Notes under the pieces: model-generated | What the model was told of the DNA's origin: nothing | The model's database searches: none | Seen by the model: only the letters and a program-made list of their open reading frames with translations | Shown here: positions 1-29,433 of the stretch, piece after piece | Layout of the letters: each line of letters opens with the position of its first letter | Position numbering within the stretch: the first letter of the stretch is position 1 | Source of the DNA: Ruminococcus sp. | GTDB taxonomy: Bacteria; Bacillota_I; Bacilli_A; RF39; UBA660 | DNA length: 64,000 nucleotides | Assembly: GCA_023663235.1 (NCBI GenBank) | Contig: JAMPHW010000001.1 | Span: 51,392-115,391 of the forward strand | Reading direction: 5' to 3' | Translations under genes and position numbers: made by a program

Positions 1-1058
1 GTACTGCTAAAACAATGAGCGAATTACTTGCAACACATTATATAGGAAGATATACAAGAACAAGTAAAAACAAAGATTTTAATATATCATTTAATGAAAC
101 AACAATAGGAGTGATATATGAAGGCGAAGATGATAATGGAACAACATATTATTTTGCAGGAAATCCATTAGATAACTGGATAGAATTTGGCGGATATTAT
201 TGGCGAATCATCAGAGTAAATGGAGATGGCTCTATAAGAATAATATATCAAGGAAGAACACAAGATGAAAATGGAAATAAGTTAGAACCACAAACAACTG
301 GAGAAGAAACGCAAATAGGAAAAAGTGCATTTAATGAAAAAGATAATGATAATGCCTATGTAGGTTTTATGTATGGAACTCCTAATTCTACAACTTATGA
401 AGCTACCCATGAAAACAAAAATAGCAGTACTATAAAACAAGAATTAGATAAGTGGTTTAATAATTCCAACATTAAAGAAGGTACTGATTATTTTAATAAA
501 ATTGATTTTAATGCAGGTTTTTGTAGTGATAAAACACCTAGTTCGACATACACATCAACAATAATAGATGGTGTAAATATCGGAAATGGATATAGCGGGA
601 TTGGAACATCTAAAACATATTATGCATCACATATCAAGATGATTCCCAATACTCCTGGTGGAAACGCACCAACTATAAATTCTACATCAGTCACACCAAC
701 ATTCAGCTGTAGCAACATAAATAACGACTTATTTACTTATAAGAAGGCTACCAATGGAAATAAAAAATTAGATAATCCAGTGGGTTTAATAACCGCCGAT
801 GAAATATCATATGCAGGAATGGTATATGCACTAAACTCAAACAAAAATTACCTTGATACAGACCAAAACTACTGGGCTATATCTCCAGGATATTATGAAG
901 CTGACAAGGCTCGCACATTCTGTGTGCTTTTGGATGGTTATCTTTGGTATACTTATACAAGCAACAGTTTAGGCATTCGTCCTGTTATAAATCTCCGCTC
1001 AGATACACTATTTACTGGTGATGGAACAATTTCTAATCCCTTTAAAGTTGTAATTTAA
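1..1058 (+). CDS. Secreted protein, paralog-family member A (5'-partial; real start upstream of window)
   Basis: ORF 15..1058 stays in frame back to nt 1 ('AKTMSELLATHY' matches internal 'DAKTMSELLETHY' of the 22129..23388 paralog). Core GNPLDNWIEFGGYYWRIIRVNGDGSIRIIYQG is about 90% identical to paralog B. C-terminus is GIRPVINLRSDTLFTGDGTISNPFKVVI. Confidence 0.6.
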   Translation, partial: TAKTMSELLATHYIGRYTRTSKNKDFNISFNETTIGVIYEGEDDNGTTYYFAGNPLDNWIEFGGYYWRIIRVNGDGSIRIIYQGRTQDENGNKLEPQTTGEETQIGKSAFNEKDNDNAYVGFMYGTPNSTTYEATHENKNSSTIKQELDKWFNNSNIKEGTDYFNKIDFNAGFCSDKTPSSTYTSTIIDGVNIGNGYSGIGTSKTYYASHIKMIPNTPGGNAPTINSTSVTPTFSCSNINNDLFTYKKATNGNKKLDNPVGLITADEISYAGMVYALNSNKNYLDTDQNYWAISPGYYEADKARTFCVLLDGYLWYTYTSNSLGIRPVINLRSDTLFTGDGTISNPFKVVI

Positions 1059-1126
1059 TATTTACTAAGACTTATAAATTATTTATAATAACTATAGGAT
1101 TAATCTGTTATGTGGAATATATGTAG

Positions 1127-1249
1127 TCTCCGTTTAACTATGGAAACGCTAACGTGTTCATTGTGTGGTCGGATGGCTACCTCACCACCAACAACGTGAA
1201 CAACACGCGAGGTGTGCGTCCAATATCCTTTTATCACTCATTTATTTGA
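1127..1249 (+). pseudogene. Orphan GC-rich C-terminal fragment of the paralog family (SPFNYGNANVFIVWSDGYLTTNNVNNTRGVRPISFYHSFI*)
   Basis: Short frame 70 bp after paralog A, opened by an in-frame TAG. It matches the family C-terminal architecture (..DGYL..x9..G[IV]RP[VI]..) but has GC-rich codon usage unlike its 27%-GC surroundings. Contains the 12-mer ggtgtgcgtcca (1211..1222), also present at the window end. Confidence 0.4.
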
Positions 1250-1403
1250 TTAAGGTTAAATAAAGAAGAATTAGGATACAAGATTAATCCTTAAGTTATA
1301 ATACTTTAAAAAAATAACACTGATGTTTTATGTCCTGTATATAAAACTATTACAGTGTTTTTTATTTTTTATAAAAAATTATAAATTTACACAATAATTC
1401 CAA

Positions 1404-1430
1404 CAAAAAAAGAACTAAATTAATAGTTCT
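1404..1430 (-). terminator. Rho-independent terminator of the rubrerythrin gene
   Basis: Hairpin agaactaaattaatagttct overlapping the stop codon, then a T-run on the minus strand. Confidence 0.55.
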
Positions 1431-1959
1431 CAGCTTTAAGTTCCATAAAACTTTGTGGATGAGCACAAACAGGACATACCATTGGAGCTTTTTCCCCAAC
1501 ATAAACATATCCACAATTACGGCAAATCCAAACAACTTCTTCTCCTTTTTGGAACACTAAATTATCATCAATATTTCCAACAAGTTTTAAATATCTTTCT
1601 TCATGATGTTTTTCTATTTTACCAACTTCTTCAAATAATTTAGCTATACGGTCAAAACCTTCTTCTTTAGCAGTTAGAGCAAACTCTTTATACATTTCAG
1701 TCCACTCATAGTTTTCACCACTAGCTGCATCTTTTAAATTAGTTAAAGTATCTGGAACACTACCTCCATGTAATTCTTTAAACCACATTTTAGCATGTTC
1801 TTTTTCATTATTAGCTGTTTCTTCAAAAATCGCTGCAATTTGTTCATAGCCGTCTTTCTTAGCTTTTGATGCATAGTAAGTATATTTATTTCTAGCTTGA
1901 CTTTCACCAGCAAATGCAGCCATTAAATTAGCTTCTGTTTTTGAACCTTTTAATTCCAT
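1420..1959 (-). CDS. rbr: Rubrerythrin (ferritin-like diiron domain plus C-terminal rubredoxin-like CxxC..CxxC domain)
   Basis: [42 protein letters not shown]...[10 protein letters not shown]...CPVCAHP. Start moved to the 6th codon, which has a GGAGG RBS. Confidence 0.9.
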
Positions 1960-2077
1960 ATATATTACCTCCAATAAATATTATAACTAACTAAAATTTA
2001 AAAGTAAAGAGACGAAATAAATTATTTACAGAAAGAGTTAAATATTATATAATAATTAAGCTTAAAGGAGTGATACT

Positions 2078-2497
2078 GTGAATTTATATCAACTATTAGA
2101 TCTTTCTCCCACTAACAATATTATCGAAATATTAAATAAATTTAAAGATAAATGCCAAGAACATCCTGAAAACACTTTTAAGTATACATATGCTTTGTGT
2201 ATTCTAATTGACAAAACTAGAAAAATATTTTATGATGCCGCATTATTTCACATAGATATTAATACTTTATATGAATGTTATTCTAAAAATGAAACAGAAG
2301 AAATAGATGAAGCTGACGAATATGAAATCATGGATTTTATTGAATGGTTAGATTATTTTAGAGAAATCTTTTTTGATACTAAATTTTCTACCAATAACCA
2401 AAACTATCATAAATTAGTTACAGATTGGTATATTACTATAGTAAAATTACTAGATTACCTAAAAAGCCAATATATTCACAGTTTCTACCTTCCATAA
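2078..2497 (+). CDS. Hypothetical protein
   Basis: 139-aa ORF with no recognisable motifs. Confidence 0.35.
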   Translation: MNLYQLLDLSPTNNIIEILNKFKDKCQEHPENTFKYTYALCILIDKTRKIFYDAALFHIDINTLYECYSKNETEEIDEADEYEIMDFIEWLDYFREIFFDTKFSTNNQNYHKLVTDWYITIVKLLDYLKSQYIHSFYLP

Positions 2498-2522
2498 ATA
2501 CCTTTAAAGGTGTTTTTTTATA

Positions 2523-3581
2523 TTATACTTTAAGTAAATTACTACTATTTACAATAAGTGTACTATAAAGAAGTAAAACATCTTTATTGTTAAAATCAAC
2601 ATAATTGCTTACTAAATCCATTTTAATATATCTTAAATCAATTAAAGTTATCTTTTTATATTCGTCTAACAATAATGGTGTTAAACTACTAGCAAAAGAA
2701 TCTCTAAATATGATTAGCTCTCTATCTGTCGTAGCTAACTTATTTTCTATTTCAATGAAAGCACTTGGCCCACCTAAATAAATGTTATAAGAATCCATAC
2801 TATTTAATTTTTCTAATTCATAAATAGATTTTTCACCATACTCTAAATGTTTAACTAAAGCATTCTCTATCACTTCATTAGATAATATTTTCATTTTATC
2901 AGGCCTAATAAATATAGGTACTTTTCTATAAGAAGAGCCATAAAAAGAGTTATAAACTAAAGTATCATATTCTTCTTTCTTATAATTAAAGTTTAAATAA
3001 TAACCTAGTTCTTCTATAACATTAAAATAACTCTCCTGCTTTATATGAATATCTGTCTTATAATAATCTTCTAAATTTAATACATTTGTTATATCTATAT
3101 AATTAATATTTATTTCCTTTTTTAACTTATTAAAAATATAATTATAATCTAATTTTAAATATTTATTATCATCTAAATAATATCCTTTATCAGGTATCAC
3201 TGCATAATAAACTTTACTATTTTTAAGATATGTATCATTAATATAGTTTAATTTCTTAATAAAATTATTAACACTTGCCTCATTTAAAGGATAATTTTTT
3301 TCAATTATATAATTATTACTAACATAAACATCATTACTATCAATTATGTTTAAAATATACCTGTCATATATAGAGTTTAAACTAATGAAACTATCCCTAA
3401 GTAAAAATTGATCTTTCATATAATCATCTAAATTATCTATAAAATCTTCTTTTAAAACTTCTTTCGTTGCTAATTTTCTTCGCTCATTAAAGGATATTTC
3501 CTTATCTTCTATAAATAAAAAAGCTAAAGAAAAAATAAATAATATTAAAACAAATCCTACACCTATCACTTTATCTTTCAT
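2523..3581 (-). CDS. Membrane-anchored partner of the MBOAT (DltD/AlgJ/DHHW-like)
   Basis: N-terminal TM anchor. Lies immediately downstream of, and probably translationally coupled to, the MBOAT gene, the typical arrangement for MBOAT partners. Confidence 0.45.
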   Translation of the reverse strand: MKDKVIGVGFVLILFIFSLAFLFIEDKEISFNERRKLATKEVLKEDFIDNLDDYMKDQFLLRDSFISLNSIYDRYILNIIDSNDVYVSNNYIIEKNYPLNEASVNNFIKKLNYINDTYLKNSKVYYAVIPDKGYYLDDNKYLKLDYNYIFNKLKKEININYIDITNVLNLEDYYKTDIHIKQESYFNVIEELGYYLNFNYKKEEYDTLVYNSFYGSSYRKVPIFIRPDKMKILSNEVIENALVKHLEYGEKSIYELEKLNSMDSYNIYLGGPSAFIEIENKLATTDRELIIFRDSFASSLTPLLLDEYKKITLIDLRYIKMDLVSNYVDFNNKDVLLLYSTLIVNSSNLLKV

Positions 3582-3583
3582 AT

Positions 3584-4960
3584 TTAAAACCTAAAATAAA
3601 TAAAAGGGTTAAATGAACTTGAAATTATTCTTGCAATACATAATATAAAAATAAAAAACAATCCAAGCACACTCATAAATTCTATCATTTTATTTATTTT
3701 TCCTTTCTTAAGTTTTTCTAACATATTCTTTATAAAAGGTCCTATACCAATAAATGAAAAAATTAAAATAACTAAATTATTCCTCAAAAAGTATATAGCT
3801 TCATTATTAATAAACTCACTACCAACACCAAATAAACCTTTTATAAATATCCAGAGTTTATGTAAATCGGTAACATTAAAAATCACAAAACTTATTAGAA
3901 CAATAATAAACGTATATAAATGTGAGATTATTCCTTTTTTCAAGAATTTTTTTAAAATAAACTTTTCTAAAATTAAAAACATAAAAAAGTATAATCCCCA
4001 TAAAATAAAATTCCAACTAGCTCCATGCCATAAACCAGTTAAAAGCCATACAATAAATATATTTCTTATATTTTTAAATAAAGAACATCTGTTACCGCCT
4101 AAAGGTATATAAATATAATCTCTAAAAAAGCTTGATAAAGATATATGCCATCTTCGCCAAAAATCAGTAATTGAAGATGCTATTAAAGGATAATTAAAAT
4201 TTTCTTTAAACTGAAATCCAAGCATTTTCCCAAGACCTATCGCCATATCTGAATATCCCGAAAAATCATAATATATTTGAAATGTAAAAATAAGTGCTAC
4301 TAACCAGTATGATACAGTTGTTAAATTAGAATTTAATATAGCCCCATAAGCATTATATAAAGTATCCGCAATTAAAACTTTCTTACCTAGTCCTAAAATA
4401 AATCTTGTAACACCATCACTAAAATTACTAAAATTCTCTTCTCTATTTTTTAACTCCTTATTTACATCTTTATATCTAACAATTGGTCCAGCTATTAATT
4501 GAGGAAATAAAGAAATATAAGTGCAATAATTAAGAAAATTTTGCTCACCTTTAACATCTTTTTTATAAACATCAATTATATAACTTAAATTTTGAAATGT
4601 AAAAAAACTTATTCCTAAAGGTAAAATAATGTTTAAATCAAACCTGTTTAAACCCAAAATATTCGTAAAATTATCTAAGAAAAAACCTGTATATTTATAA
4701 TAGAATAAAATTCCTAAATTAAAAATAATACCTAATACTAAAAAGCTTTTCTTTCTCTTTCTATCAATTAAAATACCTAATATATAATTTACTAAACAAG
4801 TAAAAAGTAATAATATAACATAATTCTTTTCACCAAAATAATAGAAAATCAAACTAAATACTAATAATACTTTATTTCGAAACCTTTTAGGAACTAAAAA
4901 ATAAAAAAGTAATAATAAAGGCAAAAAAAAGAAGAGAAAATTAATACTTGAAAATACCAT
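3584..4960 (-). CDS. Membrane-bound O-acyltransferase (MBOAT; AlgI/DltB family)
   Basis: Multi-TM protein with the MBOAT signature region WRRWHISLSSFFRDYIYIPLGGNR and a conserved His. Confidence 0.85.
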   Translation of the reverse strand: MVFSSINFLFFFLPLLLLFYFLVPKRFRNKVLLVFSLIFYYFGEKNYVILLLFTCLVNYILGILIDRKRKKSFLVLGIIFNLGILFYYKYTGFFLDNFTNILGLNRFDLNIILPLGISFFTFQNLSYIIDVYKKDVKGEQNFLNYCTYISLFPQLIAGPIVRYKDVNKELKNREENFSNFSDGVTRFILGLGKKVLIADTLYNAYGAILNSNLTTVSYWLVALIFTFQIYYDFSGYSDMAIGLGKMLGFQFKENFNYPLIASSITDFWRRWHISLSSFFRDYIYIPLGGNRCSLFKNIRNIFIVWLLTGLWHGASWNFILWGLYFFMFLILEKFILKKFLKKGIISHLYTFIIVLISFVIFNVTDLHKLWIFIKGLFGVGSEFINNEAIYFLRNNLVILIFSFIGIGPFIKNMLEKLKKGKINKMIEFMSVLGLFFIFILCIARIISSSFNPFIYFRF

Positions 4961-4975
4961 TGTTCTTCTTCCCTT

Positions 4976-5437
4976 CTATTTTAAATTTTCAAAATTTGCT
5001 TTTATTTTTGGTGCAAGTTCATTAGACATAATTAATACTACTAAATCTCCTTTAGCTAAAACATAAGTGTTTTCAGCTTCAACACATATCCATTTTCTTG
5101 GATCAGCATTATTCTTAATTTCTGTAACAGCACTATCAGCATCTGCACTATTTTCTAAACGGATTAAAACTACAGAATGCGCTATAGAACCAGTCATAGA
5201 TTCACTTGCTATCGCTTCTTTATAATTAATATCAGCAAAAGCATAATACTTAAAGTTTTCTTCATTTAGTTCTGTATTCTCTACCATCATTGGCATTTCA
5301 TCTTCTGATATACCATCATATAACTTTTCCATTATTTCAGGTAATGTTCCAGAAACATTTTCTGATGCCTTTTTTCCACAACCTGTTATAGAAAAACAAA
5401 CTAATAAAGCACAAAATAAGCCTAATACTTTTTTCAT
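4976..5437 (-). CDS. Lipoprotein
   Basis: MKKVLGLFCALLVCFSITGCGKK has a lipobox (ITGC). Start moved to the internal Met. Confidence 0.6.
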   Translation of the reverse strand: MKKVLGLFCALLVCFSITGCGKKASENVSGTLPEIMEKLYDGISEDEMPMMVENTELNEENFKYYAFADINYKEAIASESMTGSIAHSVVLIRLENSADADSAVTEIKNNADPRKWICVEAENTYVLAKGDLVVLIMSNELAPKIKANFENLK

Positions 5438-5508
5438 AAATACTCCTTTCATTCTAAGAATAGTATAACATTTAAATTAAAAAAAAAGAAGATATATTTA
5501 TAAACTTC

Positions 5509-5739
5509 TTATTTTATTAAAGGATCATCAAATTCATCATTAGTATAAACCTCTACTGATGGATGAATCTCAATCTTACCTTCTCTAACTTCACTAATTG
5601 GTTTAAGTCTTTTCTTGCTTGGCTCACTCTTATTAGATGCGATATCTACTAAATAGCCAATTAAAGCAAATACTAGTATTAAAGATATAACTAAAAACCA
5701 TAAATAGTTATCTAGTAAAAAATTAATTAAAACCTCCAT
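5509..5739 (-). CDS. Small membrane protein
   Basis: 76 aa with a single N-terminal TM. Downstream of the DUF3048 gene on the same strand. Confidence 0.4.
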   Translation of the reverse strand: MEVLINFLLDNYLWFLVISLILVFALIGYLVDIASNKSEPSKKRLKPISEVREGKIEIHPSVEVYTNDEFDDPLIK

Positions 5740-5772
5740 TTTATCCTCCTAAGAAACTTTATGATGCTTATT

Positions 5773-6849
5773 CTATGATATACCAATATCTCCACTTGTA
5801 GGTACTATATGTATCCAAGTATTACCATCATTAACTGTTATCTTTGTTCCATCTTTATACTTATATACCGTTTGAGCACTTCTACTACTTTTCTCCCAAG
5901 TTATAGGAACTGCTTTACCTTCTGTAATATAATATCCTTCCCCATTACCAATATTATCTATATCCTGACGTCCTTTATCATCACCACTAATAGATTTATT
6001 ACTTACTTGATAAGTTATAATATTTTTAACTGTATATTGCTCTGTTGTATCATAATCAACATGTTCTTTATCATTTACAAATTGCTTATAAACTTTATTA
6101 GTACTATCATAAACATAGTTAGTAACATAACTATTAGAATATTTTAAATCAATATTGTTAGCATCTATAACATCTTCATTACTACTTAAATCTATAGCTT
6201 TTGCACTATATTTAAGTAACATCGCTTTATTAGTTTCTGTTCTATATCCTTTCTTATCAACTAAATTAGCCATTTCCTTTAAATTAGTATATCCTGTATG
6301 TTCACTACTTATATTAGCATCGTATTTTTTTCTAAAGAAGTATGGTGAACCACTACTAAGACCATTTAAATTATTTACTTTTAAAGTACTTATATCACTT
6401 TGCGCTTGTGGACTCCATCCCCAGTGAACATAATAAGCATCGTTTTCTAAAGCATAGTCTAAATAATAATGTCTAGCACTTCTAACACTACCTACTATTT
6501 CTGGCAAATTATCTTTAAATAAAGCCATATAACGGGTAATTCCACCTTCAACAATTATTTCATAAACTAAATAAGCTTTTTGAAGTCCTATATGATAAGG
6601 TCTAGCTGCCCCAATATTATTAATCATTACAGCATAAGGTCTAGATTTACTATTAACATCCACTATTTTAACTTTAGGTTCTTCTATCTTATTATCTTTT
6701 TTACTCTCTTTATTATCAACTTTATTTTCTAAACTATTATCTTTCTTATCAAATAATTTTGTAACTCCAAAAGCTACACCACCAATTAATAAGACACTAA
6801 TAATCCCTATAATTAACTTCTTCTTTTTCTTGTTTTTTCTCTTAACCAT
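5773..6849 (-). CDS. DUF3048-family putative lipoprotein (YerB-like)
   Basis: Lys-rich N-terminus with TM. Segment SRPYAVMINNIGAARPYHIGLQKAYLVYEIIVEGGITRYMALFKD resembles the DUF3048 core. Confidence 0.55.
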   Translation of the reverse strand: MVKRKNKKKKKLIIGIISVLLIGGVAFGVTKLFDKKDNSLENKVDNKESKKDNKIEEPKVKIVDVNSKSRPYAVMINNIGAARPYHIGLQKAYLVYEIIVEGGITRYMALFKDNLPEIVGSVRSARHYYLDYALENDAYYVHWGWSPQAQSDISTLKVNNLNGLSSGSPYFFRKKYDANISSEHTGYTNLKEMANLVDKKGYRTETNKAMLLKYSAKAIDLSSNEDVIDANNIDLKYSNSYVTNYVYDSTNKVYKQFVNDKEHVDYDTTEQYTVKNIITYQVSNKSISGDDKGRQDIDNIGNGEGYYITEGKAVPITWEKSSRSAQTVYKYKDGTKITVNDGNTWIHIVPTSGDIGIS

Positions 6850-6928
6850 AATACCTCCAACTATAACTAAAGTATAACACTTTTAATAATTAAAGTAAAC
6901 TTTTTAAAAGAAAAAAGAAAGCTACTTT

Positions 6929-9900
6929 TTAAGCCTTCTTAATTTTCTTCGCTCTTACAAAAGCAATACCTAATCCAACGGTTAATACTCCTAGACTTGC
7001 AATATACCATATCATATTATCGCTATCTTTCTCTTGAACACTATCATTAGTATCTTTATACTTAATTATAATATCTCCTAAAGAAGTAGTCCTAAATTCA
7101 ATTGTACCATTATCAATTTTAGTATTAGTAACTTTTATTAAAGCATTATTTTTTATCATATATATACTGTCAAACTCTTTATTTGGATTTAAACTAACTC
7201 TTATTGTTAAACTACTATTTTTTAGTTTTATTTCTTCATTTTTAGCATCAACAACTGCTACTTTAAATACCTCACACTCTTTACCTAACTCGTTCTCTAA
7301 ACTACTATCTAGAATTTTTTCTTGAACAATTAAACTTTCAACTTTTCCTAAACCTGTACCTTTAATTACTATACCATTATTACCAAATTCTCTAACACCA
7401 TCATTTTCATTTGATAAATTATCATTGTTAGTATTTTCGGAGTTATTAACATTGTCTTGATTTGGTGTATTAGATGAAATATTATTATTAGTACTATTAT
7501 CTATATTTGAAACATTATTATTTGTACTTTCATTATTAGTGTTATTGCTATTATTTGGTTTGTTTGCACTTCCATTATTAGTATTATTATTACTAGTATT
7601 TGGTTTATTTGTACTTCCATTATTAGTATTATTATTACTAGTATTTGGTTTATTTGTACTTTCGCTACTTGAATTAGAATTATTATTTGAGTTTTCACTT
7701 ATAGAAGTAATAACTGCTGTTACAATACCCTCATTTCCAGCCTTATCATAAAACTTAATAGGATATGTTCCATTCTTCGTATAAATATATGTTCCATTAC
7801 CAAATTCATAAGTAATTTCTTCACTTGGATTTACTACTTTAACTAATACCATATTAGAACTTGATTTATCATAATAAAGACTAGCACTTGGATTTATTTT
7901 ATCAATATAATCAACTTTAGCTGTCGCTCTTCCTTTGTTTCCTTTAGAATCTTCATATTCAAAAGTAAATTCTCCATTATCCTTGAAAGTATAAGAATTA
8001 CTTCCATTATTATTAGTAATTTTTACATTTTTTCTATCAAATTCAATTACTGCTGTTACATCTTGATTTGTTAAACTAGTTTCACTATAATATATTTTTG
8101 GTATCACTTTATCTTCAATAATCCAATCTACTTTAGCTGTAATACTACCCTTATTTCCTCTAATATCTTCATATTCAAAAGTAAACTCACCATTCTTTAT
8201 AAAGGTATATTTATTGCTACCATTATTATTAGTAACTTTTACTCTACTTCTGTTAAATTCAATAGTTGCTACAACATCATCATAAGTTGAAGTGTTTATA
8301 TCATAAGTTATAGTAGCTATAGCTGGACTTTCGTTAATTACAGATACAATCGCTGTAGTTTCTCCCACATTCCCTGCTGCATCTACATATCTAAATGTAT
8401 ATTCTCCATTTTTAATAAATTCATGTTTAAAAGGATTTATATTCATTACATAGTTATTATTTATGTCTGTAACATTACCTTCACTATCAACTTTATATCC
8501 ATCCACAACGTTTCCATTAGAATCAATTAAATTTCCTGCATCATCAGAAGTATAATCACTATCATTAATTATTGTTACCACCTCATTAGGTCTTAATATT
8601 GCCATTACACTATCAGTTTCTTTACTAATAACAATTTCTATTTCAGCAGTTGGAGCTACTTTATCTATCCAATCTACTTTAGCATCTAATGTCCCTACAT
8701 TTCCAGCTTCATCTACGTATTCAAAAGTAAATTCGCCATTTTCTTTAAATGTATATGTGAGTTTACCCTCATTGTTGGTTACTGTCACATTCTCTTTATT
8801 AAATGTAATTGTTGCTGTTACATCTTGATTTGTTAATTCAGTTTTATCATAAGTTATCTCTGCTACTGGTGCATCTTTATCAATCCATGTAACTTCTACT
8901 AAAGTACTTCCTGTATTTCCAGCTTTATCAACATATTCAAAAGTAAATTCTCCATTCTCTGTAAATGTATATTCATTTTTACCTTCATTGTTAGTTATTG
9001 TTACATTTTCTTTATCAAATGTAATCGTAGCAGTTACGTCTTGATTTGTTAATTCAGTTTTATCATAAGTTATCTCTGCTACTGGTGCATCTTTATCAAT
9101 CCATGTAACTTCTACTAAAGTACTTCCTGTATTCCCGGCTTCATCGACATATTCAAAGGTAAATTCGCCATTTTCTGTAAATGTATATTCATTTTTACCC
9201 TCGTTATTAGTTACTGTTACATTTTCTTTATCAAATGTAATTGTCGCTGTTACATTTTGATTAGTCTTTTCGCTTATATTATAAGTTACTGTTCCTACTG
9301 GAACTACTTTATCTATCCAATCAACTTTAGCGTCTAATGTCCCTACATTTCCAGCTTCATCTACGTATTCAAAAGTAAAGTCTCCATTTTCTGTAAATGT
9401 ATATGTGAGTTTACCTTCATTATTAGTTACTGTTACATTTTCTTTATCAAATGTAATTGTTGCAGTTACGTCTTGATTTGTTAATTCAGTTTTATCATAA
9501 GTTACCTCTGCTACTGGTGCCTCTTTATCAATCCATGTAACTTCTACTAAAGTACTTCCTACATTTCCTGCTTCATCGACATATTCAAAAGCAAACTCGC
9601 CATTTTCTGTAAATGTATATTCATTTTTACCTTCATTGTTAGTTACTGTTACATTCTCTTTATCAAATGTAATTGTCGCTGTTACATCTTGATTAGTCTT
9701 TTCACTTATATCATAAGTTACTGTTCCTACTGGAACTTCTTTATCAATCCATGTAACTTCTACTAAAGTACTTCCTACATTTCCTGCTTCATCTACGTAT
9801 TCAAAAGTAAATTCTCCATTTTCTGTAAATGTATATTCATTTTTACCTTCATTATTAGTTATTGTTACATTTTCTTTATCAAATGTAATTGTTGCTGTGA

Positions 9901-12250
9901 TATCTTGATTAGTTTTTTCAGTTTTATCATAAGTTACAGTTCCTATTGGGGCTATTTTATCTATCCAATCAACTGTTACTTCTTTTATAGCTTTATTTCC
10001 TCTAATATCTACATATTCAAAAGTAAATGAACCATTCTCACTAAAAATATAAGTATTTTTTCCATCATTATTAGTAATTTTTACTCTACTTCTATCAAAA
10101 GTAATCGATACTTCAACATCTTGATTTGTTAATTCTTCTATAGAATAAGTTATTGTAGATTCTACTAAGTTTTCATTAATAGTATTTATTGTAATTGTAG
10201 AAGATCCTATATTTCCAACTTCATCTACAAAATCGAAGGTATATTCACCATTCTTAATATATTCCCTTTTAAGTGGACTTATATTAACAATATAATTGTT
10301 TTCACTATCTGTTAAATAATTACCTTTATCATCAATTATATAACCCTTATCATCTACACTATATCCATCAAGTATATTATTATCTTTATCTAATAAACTA
10401 CCATCTTCATCAAGAGTATAAATGTTACCATTAGTAATTGTTGTGTCTTCACTTGGTGTTAATTCAGTTACAACACTATCAATTATACCATTATCTTCAA
10501 CAACAGGAACAGATGTTACCTCACCTGTAGGAATTGTTTTATCAATCCATGTAACTTCTACTAAAGTACTTCCTATATTTCCAGCTTTATCAACATACTC
10601 AAAAGTAAATTCTCCATTTTCTGTAAATGTATATTCATTTTTACCTTCATTATTAGTTACTGTTACATTTTCTTTATCAAATGTAATTGTCGCTGTTACA
10701 TCTTGATTAGTCTTTTCACTTATATCATAAGTTACTGTTCCTACTGGAACTTCTTTATCAATCCATGTAACTTCTACTAAAGTACTTCCTACATTTCCTG
10801 CTTCATCGACATATTCAAAAGTAAATTCTTCATTTTCTGTAAATGTATATTCGTTTTTACCTTCATTATTAGTTACTGTTGCTCCATTATTATCACTAAG
10901 CAAAATAGTTACAATAACATCTTGATTTGTTAATTCAGTTATATTATATGATATATCTGCAATTGGAGGTATTTTATCTATCCAACCTACTTTTGCTTCC
11001 ATTGTTCCCACATTACCTGCTTCATCAACATATTCAAAAGTAAATTTACCATTCGCTGCAAAAGTATAAGTATCACTACCTTCATTGTTAGTTATTGTTA
11101 CATTTTCTTTATCAAAAGTAATTGTTGCCGTTACATCTTGATTTGTTAGATATTTAGTACTATATGTTATTGTTCCTACTGGTAAAGTTTTATCTATCCA
11201 ACTAACAGTTGCCGTTGCAGATCCTTTATTTCCAGCTTCATCTTCATATTCAAACGTAAATTCTCCATTTTCTTCGAAAACATATGTATTTTTACCACCA
11301 TTATTTGTAATTATAACTCCATTATCATCTTCAAGAGTAATAGTCGCTATAACATCTTTATTTGTTAAACTAGTTCTATCATAAGTTACTGTGGCAACAG
11401 GTGCAGTCTTATCTATCCAATTTACTCTTGCAGTTGCAGTCCCTTTATTTCCATCGCTATCAATAAGATTAAAAGTAAACTCACCATTCTCTGTAAAAGT
11501 ATAAGTATTTCTATTATCGTTATTTTCAACCTCTATATTATCATCAAAAGATATAGTAGCAGTTACATCTTTGTTAGTTACTTCACTTATATCATAAGTT
11601 ATATAACTATTAATATAATTACTAGGAACTAATTTAGCATCAGCAATAGAAGAATGATCTAAAGTAATATCAAAGTAAGGATCAACATATATTTTTAAAT
11701 AATTATACTCTTCTACGTTTACATCTACATCTATTGTTCCTGTCTTTGTTGTAACATTACCAGTTCTTTTTAATACATCCCAAGTTTTACCATCTTTAGA
11801 ACCTGATATTTGGAACCAAACACAAGCAGGACTTTCTAAATCTTGAGATGCATCAATACCTAATTTAGCTATAAATCTTGTATATTTATTAGTATATTTA
11901 GAAATATCATAAACTACTTCTCCTTTAGCATGTATTCCAAGACCTTTAGCATAATATATTCGTTTTCCATTACGATATAAACTAATAGTATCACCATTAA
12001 TATTAGTATCCTTATAAATATAAGGACTACCCCATCCATTATAAGATAATGCATCAATATAATTTAAATCTGATAAATATTTTACTTTACCATATTCTTC
12101 TGCATTAGTCGATAAACTATATGGAGTACCTAAAATACTCTCACTTACATTACCTAAAGTTGGATTATTATATGATATAGTTATATATGATATAATACCA
12201 CATATTAATCCGCCTAAAACAAATACACTTTTACTGTTTTTCATAACCAA
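6929..12250 (-). CDS. Giant surface protein: signal peptide, NPCBM-like carbohydrate-binding domain, about 17 tandem 72-aa Ig-like repeats, Asn-rich linker, C-terminal domain and C-terminal TM anchor
   Basis: NPCBM-like segment GLGIHAKGEVVYDISKYTNKYTRFIAKLGIDASQD. Repeat unit VTWIDKxxPVGTVTYDISEKTNQDVTATITFDKENVTVTNNEGKNEYTFTENGEFTFEYVDEAGNVGSTLVE. C-terminal hydrophobic helix plus KKIKKA; no LPXTG. Confidence 0.8.
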   Translation of the reverse strand: MVMKNSKSVFVLGGLICGIISYITISYNNPTLGNVSESILGTPYSLSTNAEEYGKVKYLSDLNYIDALSYNGWGSPYIYKDTNINGDTISLYRNGKRIYYAKGLGIHAKGEVVYDISKYTNKYTRFIAKLGIDASQDLESPACVWFQISGSKDGKTWDVLKRTGNVTTKTGTIDVDVNVEEYNYLKIYVDPYFDITLDHSSIADAKLVPSNYINSYITYDISEVTNKDVTATISFDDNIEVENNDNRNTYTFTENGEFTFNLIDSDGNKGTATARVNWIDKTAPVATVTYDRTSLTNKDVIATITLEDDNGVIITNNGGKNTYVFEENGEFTFEYEDEAGNKGSATATVSWIDKTLPVGTITYSTKYLTNQDVTATITFDKENVTITNNEGSDTYTFAANGKFTFEYVDEAGNVGTMEAKVGWIDKIPPIADISYNITELTNQDVIVTILLSDNNGATVTNNEGKNEYTFTENEEFTFEYVDEAGNVGSTLVEVTWIDKEVPVGTVTYDISEKTNQDVTATITFDKENVTVTNNEGKNEYTFTENGEFTFEYVDKAGNIGSTLVEVTWIDKTIPTGEVTSVPVVEDNGIIDSVVTELTPSEDTTITNGNIYTLDEDGSLLDKDNNILDGYSVDDKGYIIDDKGNYLTDSENNYIVNISPLKREYIKNGEYTFDFVDEVGNIGSSTITINTINENLVESTITYSIEELTNQDVEVSITFDRSRVKITNNDGKNTYIFSENGSFTFEYVDIRGNKAIKEVTVDWIDKIAPIGTVTYDKTEKTNQDITATITFDKENVTITNNEGKNEYTFTENGEFTFEYVDEAGNVGSTLVEVTWIDKEVPVGTVTYDISEKTNQDVTATITFDKENVTVTNNEGKNEYTFTENGEFAFEYVDEAGNVGSTLVEVTWIDKEAPVAEVTYDKTELTNQDVTATITFDKENVTVTNNEGKLTYTFTENGDFTFEYVDEAGNVGTLDAKVDWIDKVVPVGTVTYNISEKTNQNVTATITFDKENVTVTNNEGKNEYTFTENGEFTFEYVDEAGNTGSTLVEVTWIDKDAPVAEITYDKTELTNQDVTATITFDKENVTITNNEGKNEYTFTENGEFTFEYVDKAGNTGSTLVEVTWIDKDAPVAEITYDKTELTNQDVTATITFNKENVTVTNNEGKLTYTFKENGEFTFEYVDEAGNVGTLDAKVDWIDKVAPTAEIEIVISKETDSVMAILRPNEVVTIINDSDYTSDDAGNLIDSNGNVVDGYKVDSEGNVTDINNNYVMNINPFKHEFIKNGEYTFRYVDAAGNVGETTAIVSVINESPAIATITYDINTSTYDDVVATIEFNRSRVKVTNNNGSNKYTFIKNGEFTFEYEDIRGNKGSITAKVDWIIEDKVIPKIYYSETSLTNQDVTAVIEFDRKNVKITNNNGSNSYTFKDNGEFTFEYEDSKGNKGRATAKVDYIDKINPSASLYYDKSSSNMVLVKVVNPSEEITYEFGNGTYIYTKNGTYPIKFYDKAGNEGIVTAVITSISENSNNNSNSSSESTNKPNTSNNNTNNGSTNKPNTSNNNTNNGSANKPNNSNNTNNESTNNNVSNIDNSTNNNISSNTPNQDNVNNSENTNNDNLSNENDGVREFGNNGIVIKGTGLGKVESLIVQEKILDSSLENELGKECEVFKVAVVDAKNEEIKLKNSSLTIRVSLNPNKEFDSIYMIKNNALIKVTNTKIDNGTIEFRTTSLGDIIIKYKDTNDSVQEKDSDNMIWYIASLGVLTVGLGIAFVRAKKIKKA
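7480..7700. repeat. Asn-rich low-complexity tandem repeat (coding linker)
   Basis: Repeated NKPNTSNNNTNNGST units. They generate spurious shadow ORFs on both strands. Confidence 0.6.
7950..11640. repeat. Array of 216-bp tandem coding repeats (72-aa Ig-like domains), many copies near-identical at nucleotide level
   Basis: The motif ccatgtaacttctactaaagtacttcc recurs every 216 bp (for example 8885 and 9101). Confidence 0.8.
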
Positions 12251-20888: not shown

Positions 20889-20891
20889 AAA

Positions 20892-21796: not shown

Positions 21797-21959
21797 TTAT
21801 TTTTCCTCCTTCCGATTAACACACACCCTGGTGTATCCGATATTCCATTAAATTAGGTTCTACCTAGATAGAACCAGAATTTAAAATGCGTATTTAATAT
21901 ACCATTTATATTATATGATTGTCAAGTAATATTTTGTTAAATTTTAAATATTATTTATT

Positions 21960-23388
21960 TTAAGAAAGGACTTTAAAAGGGTTTGATTGTGTACCATCGC
22001 CTGTAAAAGCAACATCAGAACGTAAATTAATTACAGGTCTTATGCCTCTATCTTTTGTTACATCATTATAATCCGTTCCCATGTGCCCTGGCATATGTAC
22101 TATTACTACACCAGCTCCCTTAAGGGAATTACTTAAATGAAATTGAAAGGGGTGACATAGTCCAATATTCTATGTTAGTATATAAATAATATTTCTTATT
22201 ATAAGTTAACTCTTCCACTTTTTGCCAATAAATTCCACCAGCATAGCTAACATCATCTGACGTAATTAAACCTACAGGATTACCTAATATTCTATTTCCT
22301 TTATTTGAGTTCTTATATGTATACAAATCTAGATCACTTTCACAATGATAAGTCGCATTAGTTCCTGTTCCGCAATTTCCACCACTAGGACATAAAAGTA
22401 CACTTCTATAATATGTATTTACTTTGCCTATTCCAATTCCAGCTTTTGTCCCAAAAGTATCTGCATAGGGAGTTCTGTCCCCGCAGAATCCAGCATTTAA
22501 ATCTATTTTGTCAAAATAATTTGTTCCCTCTTTTATATTAGAATTTTTAAACCAATCGTCTAAAAATAAATAAGCTAATGAAGGTTGCTTTAAACCGCGT
22601 AATACATCCTGTTCATACCAATATCCAACATACTTATTGTCATCGCCATTTTCATTAAAGGCAATTTTTCCAATTATTGTTTCTTCTCCTGTTGCTTGTG
22701 GTTCTAATTTATTTCCATTTTCATCTTTTGTTCTTCCTTGATATATTATTCTAATTGAGCCATCTCCATTTATTCTTATTATTCGCCAATAATATCCGCC
22801 AAATTCTACCCAGTTATCTAATGGATTTCCTGCAAAATAATAAGTTGTCCCATCATCATCTTCACCTTCATATATAACACCAATTGTTGTATTCTCTATT
22901 GTCTTATTAAATGTTCCTTCTTCTCTTGTCTTTCTTCCTGTATAATGCGTTTCTAATAACTCGCTCATTGTTTTTGCATCAATTATATCTTTATCTAAAT
23001 AGATGAAACACTTATCTCCTTTAGATATTCCTCTAAAAGTATGTATTCCTCCTATTGTTTCTAATATAGCATTTGTATCTTTATTTTCTTTTTTACAATT
23101 GCTTCCTTTGCAACAATATGTTTCTTCTTTATTTATTGTATAACCAGTAGGTAAGGTCGTATCTTTAGATAATTCTTGATAATTTCCGTCACCTTCATTA
23201 ATATACATTGCCATTACATTTACATCATAAGGACTAGATACTACTTTACCCTCTGTTAATGGAATTGATGCAGTCATTCTATAATTTGCTTTTGATGTTA
23301 TAAATGTGACCGTTATAGTAAGTACTACTACTATTATTAGACCACACCAAAAATGCTTTTTGCTATTTTTATTTCTTTCAAATTTCAT
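21960..23388 (-). pseudogene. Secreted protein paralog B, frameshifted near the C-terminus (ORF 22129..23388 plus a downstream frame)
   Basis: The annotated ORF ends ..YWTMSPLSISFK*. The adjacent frame continues ..HLSNSLKGAGVVIVHMPGHMGTDYNDVTKDRGIRPVINLRSDVAFTGDGTQSNPFKVLS*, matching the C-termini of paralogs A and C. A 1-nt indel in a homopolymer near 22131..22150 is implied. Confidence 0.6.
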
Positions 23389-23553
23389 TTTTAACCCTTT
23401 CTTAGATTAAGTATCACTTAATTCTTTTAATATCATAATTATGATAACATATCTATAAGCTAAAATAGCTTATCTATATTCACTATAAGCCATTTCGGCT
23501 TAAAAGTCAATAACCTATTTTAGATTATGATTAAATTATGATTAGAGGTTAGC

Positions 23554-23793
23554 ATGAATAGATTAAAAGAACTAAGAACTGAAAAAAGAAAACTACAAAA
23601 AGAAATAGCCGAAATATTAAATATATCTCAAACTGGATATTCTAAATATGAAGTTGAAACTAACGACATTCCAACTGAAGTATTAAAAAAACTTGCTATA
23701 TACTACAATACTTCAATTGATTATATTTTATGCTTTACTGATACTAAAGAACCACATACCAAAAGCATTTTAATAGACAAGGACAGTTTATGA
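23554..23793 (+). CDS. XRE-family HTH transcriptional regulator (small, Cro/CI-type)
   Basis: LKELRTEKRKLQKEIAEILNISQTGYSKYEVETNDIPTEVLKKLAIYYNTSIDYIL is a helix-turn-helix (HTH_3) pattern. Divergent from paralog B. Confidence 0.75.
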   Translation: MNRLKELRTEKRKLQKEIAEILNISQTGYSKYEVETNDIPTEVLKKLAIYYNTSIDYILCFTDTKEPHTKSILIDKDSL

Positions 23794-24032
23794 ATAGATT
23801 AAGAGATTTAAGAGAAGATAAAGATTTACTACAACAAGATATTGCCAAATATTTAAAAATATCCCAAACTGGATATTCTAAATATGAAGTTGAAACTAAT
23901 GACATCCCAACTAAAGTTTTAAAAAGTCTAGCTATATATTACAATACAAGTATTGACTATTTATTATGTTTAACTGACAACAGAAAAGCTTATCCCAAAA
24001 GTACAATTAAACAAGGTGAAAAAAATGTATAA
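23790..24032 (+). CDS. XRE-family HTH transcriptional regulator (tandem duplicate of the previous)
   Basis: About 75% identical to the 23554 protein: ...ISQTGYSKYEVETNDIPTKVLKSLAIYYNTSIDYLL. Confidence 0.75.
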   Translation: MNRLRDLREDKDLLQQDIAKYLKISQTGYSKYEVETNDIPTKVLKSLAIYYNTSIDYLLCLTDNRKAYPKSTIKQGEKNV

Positions 24033-24240
24033 TGAAAGACTTAAATGGCTAAGAGGCTGTAAAAATATAACTCAAAAAGAAATGGCTAATGCTTTAGGAA
24101 TTAAACAGCAACAATATGCTCGATATGAAAATGGTATAAATGTAATGCCTATAACCTATTTACCATTAATATGTAAATTTCTAAACGTATCAGCAGATTA
24201 TATATTAGGTTTAACAAACGAAATAAAACCTTTAAAATAA
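24016..24240 (+). CDS. XRE-family HTH transcriptional regulator (third, divergent copy)
   Basis: ...ITQKEMANALGIKQQQYARYENGINVMPITYLPLICKFLNVSADYILG. Confidence 0.7.
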   Translation: MKKMYNERLKWLRGCKNITQKEMANALGIKQQQYARYENGINVMPITYLPLICKFLNVSADYILGLTNEIKPLK

Positions 24241-24268
24241 AAAAGACACCCATGTGTCTTTTATTTTA
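24238..24268. terminator. Bidirectional terminator between the XRE genes and deoD
   Basis: Hairpin aagacacccatgtgtctt flanked by A and T runs. Confidence 0.6.
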
Positions 24269-24986: not shown

Positions 24987-24998
24987 TATTATTCACCT

Positions 24999-26240: not shown

Positions 26241-26424
26241 CTACTTCTTCTATTATAGAGTATATCAAAAAATTATGCTAATTATCAAGATTTTTAATTC
26301 TTTATTTAAAAAAATTCCACTAATTGACAGTAAAATCATTAATAAATCCAAGTTAAAGTAAAATTAATAACATTTTAATAGACGAAATTAAAACAATTTG
26401 TTACAATTTATTTAGGAGAAAAAT

Positions 26425-27429: not shown

Positions 27430-27454
27430 AAAATAGGCCCTAAACCTATTTTTT

Positions 27455-28807
27455 CTAAACTAAGTTTACTTTAAATGGATTATTTATTGTTCCATCACCA
27501 GTTAAAGTAACATCAGAACGTAGGTTAATTACAGGATAAATACCCCATGAATGAACTGTATTTCCATAAACAATTTCTCCTGTATTATTAACAATAAACA
27601 CATGAGAAGCAACTGCCGAAAACGGCGTCATCGTCCAATAATGACCACCACTATATAAATAATTATTTTCTATCCTAGTATCATTATTTCCATAAACAAG
27701 TCCAGCATAGCTTGCTTCATCAGCTGTTATTAATCCAACTGGATTTTCTAACACTCTGTTTCCTTTATTTGAATTTTTATATGTATATAAATCATCATTT
27801 ACCTGACACTTTAATGTAGGAGATTTTATTTTGCCATAAGCAAGTCTAACATTAGCAGCATAAACTGTATTTATTATATCAATACCACCTAAGCCATCTA
27901 TATATTCTGTACCAGAACTAGGCTGTCTATCTCCGCAAAATCCAGCATTTACATCTATTTTATCAAAAAATGAAGTACCCTGTCTTATATTTGAACTACT
28001 AAACCAACTATTTAAAGCATTATATAAAAGTGATGGCGTTTCTATACCATGAACTTTATGTTGCTCATAAAAATACCCAACATATTTATTATCATCATTA
28101 TTAGAATTAAATTGACTTATTATTCCAGTTGAGTGCATTAACCCATCATTAACTTCTCCATAATAAATTAATCTAATTGTACCATCACCATTTATTCTAA
28201 TAATACGCCAATAATATCCACCAAATTCTACCCAATTATCTAATGGTTCTCCAGCATAATAATAACTAGTTCCATCATCGTCAGGCGCAACATATACTGT
28301 TTTGTCTATTGGCGAATTATCGCTCGTTACCGCCTTATCAAACGGTAAATAATCATTTCTTCTAATATTAATATTACTAATATTAGAAAGTACATATTGA
28401 CACGCCACTCCACAATTATCATTCAACTTTTCTAAATAGAGAATACATTTAGAAGACTTACTTATCCCACTAAAAGTATGATTACCCATTTCATCAGTAT
28501 ATAATTTAACATCAACATCTTTATTATTTTTATTAGCCCCCTTATAACAATAACTTTTATTTTCATTTATTCTATAACCACTAGGTATTATAGTATTAAC
28601 ATCTTGTTCTACATTATCAAGATACAAAGCTACAATATTTATATCATAAGGACTTGATACAACTTTTCCTTCTGTTAATGGAATTGATGCAGTCATACGA
28701 TAATTTGCCTTACTTCCTATAAAATTTACTGTAACAGTAAGTACTACTACCATTATTAAGCCACACAAAAAATACTTCTTGCTATTAATATTTCTTTTTA
28801 ATTTCAT
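27455..28807 (-). CDS. Secreted protein paralog C
   Basis: The N-terminal 65 aa (signal anchor, ..SKANYRMTASIPLTEGKVVSSPYD) are about 80% identical to paralog B. Core YYYAGEPLDNWVEFGGYYWRIIRINGDGTIRLIYYG. C-terminus WGIYPVINLRSDVTLTGDGTINNPFKVNLV. Confidence 0.65.
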   Translation of the reverse strand: MKLKRNINSKKYFLCGLIMVVVLTVTVNFIGSKANYRMTASIPLTEGKVVSSPYDINIVALYLDNVEQDVNTIIPSGYRINENKSYCYKGANKNNKDVDVKLYTDEMGNHTFSGISKSSKCILYLEKLNDNCGVACQYVLSNISNINIRRNDYLPFDKAVTSDNSPIDKTVYVAPDDDGTSYYYAGEPLDNWVEFGGYYWRIIRINGDGTIRLIYYGEVNDGLMHSTGIISQFNSNNDDNKYVGYFYEQHKVHGIETPSLLYNALNSWFSSSNIRQGTSFFDKIDVNAGFCGDRQPSSGTEYIDGLGGIDIINTVYAANVRLAYGKIKSPTLKCQVNDDLYTYKNSNKGNRVLENPVGLITADEASYAGLVYGNNDTRIENNYLYSGGHYWTMTPFSAVASHVFIVNNTGEIVYGNTVHSWGIYPVINLRSDVTLTGDGTINNPFKVNLV

Positions 28808-28872
28808 TTTAATTATTGCTCCTTAAATTAACAAGCAAATCGCGATTATTTTAGAAATTTCTAGCTTATACA

Positions 28873-28898
28873 TTTATTATAATTGTTCATATAATAAA
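28873..28898. promoter_or_regulatory. Candidate operator: perfect 9-bp inverted repeat TTTATTATA-n8-TATAATAAA in the divergent promoter region
   Basis: Seen directly between paralog C (minus) and the double-HTH regulator (plus). Confidence 0.3.
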
Positions 28899-28968
28899 TG
28901 TCAAGAAAATTCTCGATATTTTCCAGTAAAACAATTTTTTAAGTAGTAAACATGAGAAAATTATGTAG

Positions 28969-29433
28969 GTGAATATTATGCATTATAGCGCAAAACTACA
29001 ATATCTAAGAGAAAAATTCGATTTAACTCAAACAGAAGCTGGAAAAATAATCAACCTAGATAGTGGCACATATAGTAATTACGAACATGAAGTGATATTA
29101 ATTCCTTTAAAACATTTAAATACACTATGTAATTATTACAATGTATCATTAGACTACATTTTTTCCTTTACAGAAGAAGTAAATTACAAAAATAGTGATA
29201 AAAATATAGATAAGAAAAAATCAGGAACAAGATTAAAAGAATTTAGAAAAGATAATAAATTAACACAAATTAAGTTAGCTAAAATTTTAAATATTGGTAA
29301 TGGAACAATTGCAGGATACGAAACTGGTAATTATTTAATAGCAACACCTTTCCTCTACACAATCTGTTCTAAATATCATATTTCTGCTGACTATCTCCTT
29401 GGTAAAACAGATAACCCAAAATACTTTAATTAA
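28969..29433 (+). CDS. Tandem double-HTH XRE-family regulator
   Basis: Two HTH_3-like segments (..LTQTEAGKIINLDSGTYSNYE.. and ..LTQIKLAKILNIGNGTIAGYETG..). Divergent from paralog C. Confidence 0.7.
   Translation: MNIMHYSAKLQYLREKFDLTQTEAGKIINLDSGTYSNYEHEVILIPLKHLNTLCNYYNVSLDYIFSFTEEVNYKNSDKNIDKKKSGTRLKEFRKDNKLTQIKLAKILNIGNGTIAGYETGNYLIATPFLYTICSKYHISADYLLGKTDNPKYFN

Follow-up and report, generated by a model that had tools for sequence, protein, structure and literature searches.

A large family of exported C-type-lectin-like proteins, often paired with divergent XRE-type regulators, in small-genome gut Bacilli

The window analysed here is a stretch of 64,000 nucleotides from a metagenome-assembled genome (MAG) labelled Ruminococcus sp. 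(GCA_023663235.1, contig JAMPHW010000001.1, positions 51,392 to 115,391), and it carries three members of a large family of exported proteins, two of which face small genes for XRE-type helix-turn-helix (HTH) regulators. We consider it moderately probable that the family is a repertoire of surface binding proteins, encoded as paralogues and held under XRE repression. The proteins would stay at the cell surface or be released from it, and would bind glycans or surface structures of the host, the food or other microbes. A C-terminal beta-hairpin and its neighbouring loops would set the specificity, giving a hard-wired repertoire of binding specificities, and the diversity would be stored as paralogues at the hairpin that diversity-generating retroelements mutate in phage DUF6273 proteins. 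Each gene would have its own near-consensus sigma-70 promoter and usually a divergent, sensor-less XRE-type repressor (one HTH or two fused), which would bind palindromes over or just downstream of the promoter and keep its neighbour silent or bistable, so that part of the repertoire would be expressed at one time. A literature search found no paper describing the family; it resembles two known kinds, the multigene surface families and the lectin-fold variable binding proteins.

Three copies in the window and at least 57 in the source genome

A first-pass annotation, made from the sequence alone, had described three paralogues with a hypervariable C-terminal segment. A tblastn search with each copy returned exactly three family members in the window, at the positions that it had given: copy A at 3-1055 (+), copy B at 23388-22132 (-) with a tail in another frame at 22115-21966, and copy C at 28807-27458 (-). 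Their pairwise identities were 51% (B/C), 57% (A/B) and 44% (A/C). The copies and their variable segments lie as follows.

1-1058, + strand: 3' end of copy A, the last 351 codons and stop of the intact 488-aa gene NC483_00265, whose 5' end lies past the window edge
897-974, + strand: variable beta-hairpin of copy A, EADKARTFCVLLDGYLWYTYTSNSLG, directly 5' of GIRPVINL (frame from base 3)
21960-23388, - strand: copy B, with the called ORF at 22129-23388 (419 aa, NC483_00340) and the tail in the other frame to 21960
22149-22152, - strand: frameshift of copy B, a C4 homopolymer (GGGG on the + strand) with one base in excess
22047-22148, - strand: variable hairpin region of copy B, in the shifted frame, FQFHLSNSLKGAGVVIVHMPGHMGTDYNDVTKDR, before GIRPVINL
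27455-28807, - strand: copy C, the intact 450-aa gene NC483_00375, 100% identical to P0001
27539-27613, - strand: variable beta-hairpin of copy C, VASHVFIVNNTGEIVYGNTVHSWG followed by I, residues 399-423, before YPVINL

The core motif, the tail motif and the three differing segments quoted in the annotation were all present as written, with the sole exception of copy C, whose tail reads GIYPVINL instead of G[IV]RPVINL. Of the decayed copies that it described, what remains is the single-base frameshift of copy B; copy A belongs to an intact gene that extends past the window edge, its translation being 100% identical to residues 138-488 of P0056 (NC483_00265). When one base was deleted from the C4 run of copy B, a 475-aa ORF was restored (21960-23388), and the frameshift could be an assembly error of the MAG. 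The tblastn searches found no orphan cassette or further fragment in the window; the piece at 21960-22137 is the shifted tail of copy B. Family copies split into two ORFs in the same manner were seen in other genomes (L047 3941-5297 and L016 3893-5203), and thus frameshifted copies, or assembly errors in copies, recur.

The multi-copy character of the family extended to the whole genome. A protein search returned 3,508 relatives, and NC483 locus tags (00155 to 07660) stood on 57 of the best 120 matches, which gives at least 57 paralogues in a source genome of ~1,530 genes, or about 4% of its genes. The family genes are dispersed among housekeeping genes, and many of the NC483 paralogues are 'partial' at contig ends, suggesting that the family breaks the assembly. 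In a scan of one genome per species at least 580 copies were confirmed, several per genome, and an exhaustive search of 1.84 billion cluster representatives gave 4,943 matching clusters (50% identity), with 482 at E <= 1e-30. Proteins of 430-490 aa have one copy of the domain, those of 700-900 aa two and giant proteins up to 7-19; P0121 (3,528 aa) and P0122 (4,905 aa) contain 7 and 19 tandem lectin-like domains of ~280 residues.

An exported protein with a divergent DUF6273-type domain

Each gene is predicted to code for an exported protein of 450-490 residues in four parts, namely an N-terminal signal/anchor helix, a ~20-residue juxtamembrane stretch, a small beta domain containing a pair of conserved cysteines, and a decorated C-type-lectin-like domain of ~280 residues. 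An AlphaFold2 model of copy C, built on a 97-sequence alignment (pLDDT 89.1, pTM 0.79), places these parts as follows.

Residues 9-34: signal/anchor helix
Residues 35-55: conserved segment, unstructured in the model
Residues 57-127: beta domain
Residues ~170-450: decorated C-type-lectin-like domain, a mixed domain in the model

Foldseek agreed with a C-type-lectin-like fold. The fold matches TvpA and Mtd and resembles the solved DUF6273 domain at the N-terminus of the Thomasclavelia ramosa IgA peptidase (PDB 9qa6). At the level of sequence, neither Pfam (E <= 0.01) nor NCBIfam matched the three window copies, and a sequence search of the PDB with the 97-sequence profile returned noise only. 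Pfam DUF6273 (PF19789) was weakly matched by 43 of the 97 relatives (best E 9.1e-08), and in six long relatives checked singly the matches lay mostly at profile positions 126-172 of 172, the C-terminal third. We take the signature strands of DUF6273 to be a W-R-[IV]-[IL] hairpin near the start and a [VI]-R-P-[VA] strand at the end. Conservation, here and below, was measured in an alignment of 49 full-length NC483 paralogues in copy C numbering, and its most conserved blocks were YYWRIIRINGDGSIRLIY and G[IV]RPVINL (85% and 78% pairwise identity; copy C has Tyr for Arg). Because the Pfam matches are weak, the superfamily assignment is based on fold and motifs, and on the model the domain appears to be a divergent subfamily of the DUF6273 / C-type-lectin-like superfamily that the Pfam model scarcely reaches. 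The annotation had recognised no function for the family; its domain, at least, now has a place.

The T. ramosa domain is a DUF6273 domain with a double-size C-type-lectin-like core (residues 31-321, 16% identity to the family) and is an accessory part of a 140-kDa sortase-anchored metallopeptidase, dispensable for its catalytic activity (PMC12237041, PMC12402451). Unlike in that enzyme, the domain in the window family is the main body of a 450-aa protein that is multi-copy and XRE-partnered. A peptidase domain (M64, HExxHxxxGxxD) gave no match, and the proteins stop 20-25 residues past the lectin-like domain.

No lipobox was found, the only N-terminal Cys being at the start of the hydrophobic helix (KKYFLCGLI), whose end reads T-S-K-A, with S-K-A as a possible cleavage motif, and no LPXTG motif occurs in the family proteins. 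Given that RFN20-type Bacilli, the order to which the genomes carrying the family probably belong, are reported without sortases, which has been read as reduced surface display (PMC10868615), it is plausible that the N-terminal helix serves as the anchor that displays the proteins.

The juxtamembrane stretch ANYRMTASIPLTEGKVVSSPYD (residues 35-55; 28643-28705, - strand, in copy C) exceeds most of the folded protein in conservation, lying inside the 75% block of residues 11-57, although it is predicted to be disordered, with pLDDT below 50. Docking, sorting and strand donation are possible roles for it. A sorting signal of SipW/TasA type is a lead suggested by A-N-Y-R-x-T-A-S-I-P-L-x-E-G-K-V and by a TasA-like motif in the distant relative P0034, to which NCBIfam gave no support. 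A hidden Markov model of the N-terminal 66 alignment columns matched family members only.

The fastest-evolving segment is a beta-hairpin before the last conserved strand

Mean pairwise identity in the alignment was highest in the following blocks.

Residues 11-57: signal helix and juxtamembrane segment, 75%
Residues 178-218: YYFAGNPLDNWVEFGGYYWRIIRINGDGSIRLIYQG core, 85%
Residues 283-293: Cys-containing KIDxNAGFCGD motif, 76%
Residues 355-367: NPVGLITADE motif, 72%
Residues 424-446: PVINLRSD...NP[FY]K tail, 78%

The alignment also has ten low-identity or indel segments. The hypervariable C-terminal segment of the first-pass annotation is the largest of these (399-419) and the fastest-evolving, while being only one of the ten. 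Structure prediction made it a beta-hairpin with strands at 401-406 and 412-416. Its sequence differs in each of the 49 paralogues and its length ranges from 24 to 33 residues; the scaffold positions A..VF.V...G are nevertheless retained, so that the earlier wording that it 'differs completely' was too strong. Asparagine makes up 10.6% of the hairpin and 10.0% of the rest of the domain, with no excess.

The 12 closest pairs, which come from other genomes, show differences at 60% of the hairpin positions, compared with 13-36% elsewhere. The pooled Nei-Gojobori ratio of nonsynonymous to synonymous rates (dN/dS) over seven independent pairs was 1.11 for the hairpin and 0.12-0.32 in every other region, and the odds ratio of nonsynonymous to synonymous differences (Nd:Sd) was 2.9 for the hairpin (Fisher p = 2e-10). 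The fastest-evolving segment is thus residues 399-423, just before the last conserved strand. In DUF6273 proteins the variable region of retroelements has been placed at the C-terminal hairpin (PMC10743442; bioRxiv 10.1101/2024.10.15.618418), and the variable hairpin of the family sits at the position of these regions in the phage proteins. A search of the window for a template/variable repeat pair that takes in a hairpin came out empty, and so did the scan of window ORFs for a reverse transcriptase, which covered ten larger ORFs of 38-64 kb, mostly prophage genes.

Family genes turn over behind a constant regulatory end

At syntenic loci of related species the flanking proteins were about 82-96% identical and the family gene 35-64%, as in four pairs of loci.

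L020/L044: two largest flanking proteins 92% and 91%, XRE 96%, family gene 35%
L010/L047: flanking proteins 89-94%, family gene 45%
L011/L033: flanking proteins 81-94% (best-conserved), family gene 47%
L008/L054: flanking proteins 85-93%, family gene 46%

For the pair L003/L030, DNA identity was 72-95% (mostly 77-92%) from the XRE gene through the intergenic region to a point ~150 nt inside the family gene, and ~50% from there on. Two paralogues at different loci, L081 and L082, were likewise 90-98% identical in DNA over most of the first ~360 nt and ~50% after. The best matches of family genes were paralogues of their own genome (61-80%), closer than their positional counterparts (35-64%), which indicates concerted evolution. 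As far as can be read from the sequences, the family appears to evolve in concert with mosaic tracts, the expression end being kept constant and the ectodomain replaced or fast-diverging; gene conversion between paralogues is, we infer, the cause.

The two members examined at population level, the L081 and L082 proteins, recurred unchanged in 44 and 55 independent assembly blocks. They are therefore stable within a species, which counts against rapid programmed switching. Sequence variation thus appears to lie between paralogues and species rather than between cells or strains. What had looked like a strain-level allele series (P0087-P0116) resolved into two nearly invariant paralogues, each at a locus of its own.

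Divergent XRE genes and promoter regions

The first-pass annotation had paired each copy with divergent XRE regulators. Three tandem genes at 23554-24240 and one double-HTH gene at 28969-29433 do face copies B and C, across gaps of 165 bp and 161 bp. All four score 42-67 bits with Pfam HTH_3, above its cut-off of 23. The upstream side of copy A lies outside the window. The genes and the sites between them and the family copies are the following.

23554-23793, + strand: X1, 79 aa, one HTH, divergent from copy B; HTH_3 E 5.6e-12
23790-24032, + strand: X2, 80 aa, tandem duplicate of X1 (78% nucleotide identity); HTH_3 E 7.7e-11
24016-24240, + strand: X3, 74 aa, of another subtype than X1 and X2; HTH_3 E 5.5e-12
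24241-24262: bidirectional terminator after X3
28969-29433, + strand: X4, 154 aa, two HTH in one chain, divergent from copy C; HTH_3 in 2 stretches, E 1.6e-18
29442-29466: terminator after X4
23482-23510, - strand: promoter-like site to copy B, TTGACT-17-TATAGT (10/12)
28876-28904, - strand: promoter to copy C, TTGACA-17-TATAAT, perfect consensus (12/12)
23449-23502: inverted repeats between the promoter and the start codon of copy B, a candidate operator or leader, including ATAAGCTA-TTT-TAGCTTAT
28870-28901: perfect 12-nt inverted repeat ACATTTATTATA / TATAATAAATGT over the -35 and -10 of the copy C promoter, a candidate operator

X1 is 72% identical to the XRE protein of module L020 in another genome, and the double-HTH proteins that accompany family genes in other genomes are 56-59% identical to X4. 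Across 80 loci of other genomes, a divergent XRE-like ORF was located 36-252 bp upstream in 36 of the 53 testable full-length copies, and a same-strand upstream XRE gene in none of them. The 40 pairs comprised 25 double-HTH (149-182 aa) and 15 single-HTH partners, and over their whole size range, 74-182 aa, the XRE partners hold no sensor domain.

A promoter of at least 10/12 (TTGAC[TA]-16/17/18-TATAAT-like) faces the family gene in most of 43 modules (35 by count of rows). The arm length of the 12-nt repeat of copy C was reached by none of 100 shuffles; a separate palindrome, ATCATAATTATGAT, lies 57 nt upstream of the copy B start codon. Modules from many genomes, 16 of 44, have the ATAAGCTA box (TATAAGCTAG(G)) 9-10 nt past the -10, 32-fold over background, and such a promoter-proximal box is present in both window modules (23449-23502 and 28848-28858) as well as in L003, L007, L011, L030, L038, L082 and others. 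In addition, of the 44 intergenic regions 19 contain AAATGAAG, which in the aligned leaders is close to the ribosome-binding site, and a subset of modules that includes copy B has an ATCATA-N-TATGAT repeat. These elements may be operators or leader elements shared by modules with different XRE partners. A structured leader RNA was also considered and dropped: RNAalifold gave no consensus structure for 13 leaders, and Rfam had nothing near the family.

A binding repertoire and its alternatives

That the proteins bind ligands is suggested by the fold, which on the model appears to be a non-catalytic binding fold. Phage DUF6273 proteins are regarded as receptor-binding proteins (PMC10743442; bioRxiv 10.1101/2024.10.15.618418), and a 687-aa protein on a viral contig with the same domain (38% identity) is located between tail-fibre genes. 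Several findings nevertheless weigh against a repressed binding repertoire. The closest solved domain, that of the IgA peptidase, has no assigned function and is dispensable for catalysis. Relaxed constraint, like diversifying selection, could yield a dN/dS of about 1 over ~25 codons, and the hairpin alignment is uncertain. For 17 of the 53 copies no XRE gene was found within 1.2 kb. A general excess of palindromes in the intergenic regions was weak only, at an average of 7.3 nt against 6.4 nt in shuffled sequences. Finally, co-divergence of regulator and family gene was looked for in the 25 double-HTH modules and rejected (Spearman -0.05 by local and -0.02 by global alignment; permutation test non-significant), a misfit with simple co-evolution of one repressor with one gene. 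The lack of correlation between the two similarities fits an exchange of coding bodies behind a constant regulatory end, without supporting strict one-to-one co-evolution.

The first-pass annotation had seen a likeness to antigenic or receptor variation or to a polymorphic surface or toxin system. Its receptor and surface side stands, the family being multi-copy, exported and of a receptor-binding (C-type-lectin-like) fold, while programmed antigenic switching found no support. In such switching, one or a few copies would be expressed and then switched, or rebuilt from silent cassettes, in evasion of immunity or phages. This would suit a multi-copy, exported family with a fast-evolving hairpin, with mosaic tracts that show recombination between paralogues and with a promoter-proximal box common to the modules, and sensor-less repressors beside strong promoters could give on/off bistability. 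However, the window holds no silent or truncated cassette, and each copy seen comes with a promoter and a start codon of its own; the copies are surrounded by housekeeping genes, none of them has a recombinase beside it, and no invertible promoter was found. The two promoter regions of the window, by reading only, contain no long homopolymer or repeat tract, and the recurrence of identical proteins in 44 and 55 assembly blocks points to stability over population timescales. We therefore regard programmed variation as unlikely. The toxin side fared worse. Polymorphic toxins or bacteriocin-like effectors, with XRE genes controlling toxin or immunity expression, would also be multi-copy, exported and variable near the C-terminus, and XRE genes are often near toxin-antitoxin or defence loci (PADLOC gave generic HTH matches). 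Yet the extreme C-terminus is among the most conserved parts and is no swappable module, the fold is that of a non-catalytic lectin-like domain, Pfam, NCBIfam, PADLOC and PHROGs revealed no toxin, peptidase or nuclease domain, and no small immunity gene or conserved downstream gene was found, leaving this account with next to no probability.

Another alternative is the capture of glycans or nutrients. Here, the repertoire would bind dietary or mucin glycans for foraging and its genes would be regulated by substrate, in keeping with the lectin-like fold, with the giant NPCBM/F5-8-type-C proteins and GH31 glycosidase of the same chromosome region and with a lineage of small-genome gut dwellers. 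We give it only a small chance, since the XRE partners have no ligand-sensing domain and hence offer no obvious sensor for induction by substrate, no transporter or glycosidase linked to the modules was found, and the canonical long loop for calcium and carbohydrate is missing in the closest solved relative (PMC12237041). A last account, in which a diversity-generating retroelement located elsewhere in the genome targets the genes, or in which the proteins are receptor-binding proteins domesticated from phages and still used by a prophage, is very improbable. In its favour, retroelements are documented to target DUF6273 domains, the C-terminal hairpin being the variable region (PMC10743442; bioRxiv 10.1101/2024.10.15.618418), TvpA and Mtd are matches for the fold, and a prophage lies in the same window (~40-64 kb); against this, the window lacks a template/variable repeat pair and its scanned ORFs a reverse transcriptase, the hairpins vary in length and, at 10.6% against 10.0% asparagine, bear no adenine-directed pattern. 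The copies are placed between housekeeping genes, the domain was found in 5 of 2.9 million viral contigs and the N-terminal part in none, and tblastn against 50,697 phage genomes gave no match.

Among known systems, Mtd, TvpA and the DUF6273 'tentaclins' of gut phages belong to the same fold superfamily and vary at the C-terminal beta-hairpin before the final conserved strand, and in these retroelement-diversified proteins and the window family alike the presumed role is the binding of a ligand or receptor. Unlike them, the window family consists of dozens of chromosomal paralogues reshuffled by recombination, has a signal helix and an extra N-terminal beta domain and is not phage-encoded. The Vsp, Vlp and Vsa proteins of Mycoplasma are large paralogous exported families with a conserved 5'/signal region, divergent bodies and recombination between copies. 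The window family is likewise large, exported and recombining, with a conserved 5' region and divergent bodies, in a reduced-genome relative of Bacilli; it differs in having no lipobox, internal tandem repeats, invertase or invertible promoter, and in its globular lectin-like body and an own promoter and own XRE gene per copy. The C-terminal domain of Legionella Lcl (PDB 8q4e; Lcl_C / DUF1566) is much smaller, at ~130 residues, and forms a trimer on a collagen-like stalk; it is single-copy, with no XRE partner.

A more specific form of the preferred reading, a repressed repertoire of surface binding proteins, is speculative, and we think it has a low probability. The cell would choose from its repertoire without rearranging DNA: some sixty lectin-fold genes would each be locked by a private, sensor-less XRE protein encoded back-to-back with a near-consensus promoter, shared boxes (ATAAGCTA, ATCATA-N-TATGAT) would allow cross-talk between repressors, cells would stochastically express a subset, and gene conversion would swap the ectodomain while keeping XRE gene, promoter and signal peptide. 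If true, this would be an alternative, based on chromosomal paralogues, to the mutagenesis of that hairpin by retroelements. Animal and human guts commonly harbour uncultured small-genome Bacilli, of whose contact with the surroundings almost nothing is known. A share of ~4% of the genes for exported proteins with a receptor-binding fold, diversifying at one hairpin, argues for the opposite of reduced surface display, and these bacteria appear to invest heavily in surface recognition. The family also provides a natural comparison within DUF6273, the same hairpin being diversified by retroelements in phages and by paralogy and recombination here. The XRE pairing offers a tractable model for the control of a large surface repertoire, and the family as a whole a testable functional lead for DUF6273, including the N-terminal domain of the T. 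ramosa IgA peptidase.

Genomic setting and host lineage

The window is AT-rich (G+C 21-33%) and chromosomal. Copy B is directly upstream of rpsL-rpsG-fusA-tuf, copy C has leuS on one side and an alanine-racemase-like gene on the other, and the genes near the window copies are PNP, enolase, the alanine-racemase-like gene, LeuRS and rpsL. The close relatives of the family all come from uncultured gut Bacilli, with labels such as 'Mycoplasma sp. CAG:776', 'Tenericutes UMGS1172' and Candidatus Caccenecus, and the 'Ruminococcus' label of the source MAG is therefore probably a mis-assignment. An altered genetic code has been reported in RFN20 (PMC8629427). For the source genome it was rejected: with AGG at a conserved Arg of EF-Tu and hardly any CGG or CGA codons in use, the standard code holds.

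Two giant proteins of 1,773 and 1,602 aa are encoded directly downstream of tuf (6929-12250 and 12353-17161, both - strand), with an NPCBM N-terminal domain in both, F5/8-type-C in one and ~19 tandem 216-nt (72-aa) repeats distributed across both genes. They look like glycan-binding surface proteins. A GH31 glycosidase is coded in the same chromosome region, and NPCBM/F5-8 genes of a similar kind stand near family members in L082-L084.

The leucyl-tRNA synthetase gene (29473-32319, - strand; 948 aa) has a NUDIX match (PF00293, E 2.9e-10) at residues 404-500, an insert placed after the editing domain and an unusual architecture for this enzyme. Upstream of leuS is a T-box leader (97 bits; 33713-33890, - strand), and between the two lie a Bro-N-domain gene (284 aa; 32717-33571, - strand) and a 135-aa ORF (32306-32713, - strand). 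A siphovirus-type prophage occupies ~40500-64000 of the window; it encodes an M23 peptidase as well as terminase, portal, capsid, Dit-like and Gp37-like tail proteins. Although its relatives bear the labels 'Mycoplasma' and 'Tenericutes', the source organism probably has a cell wall and forms spores; the window carries a CotJB spore-coat gene at 36710-37144 (+ strand), and MBOAT (DltB-like) and DHHW genes at 2523-4960.

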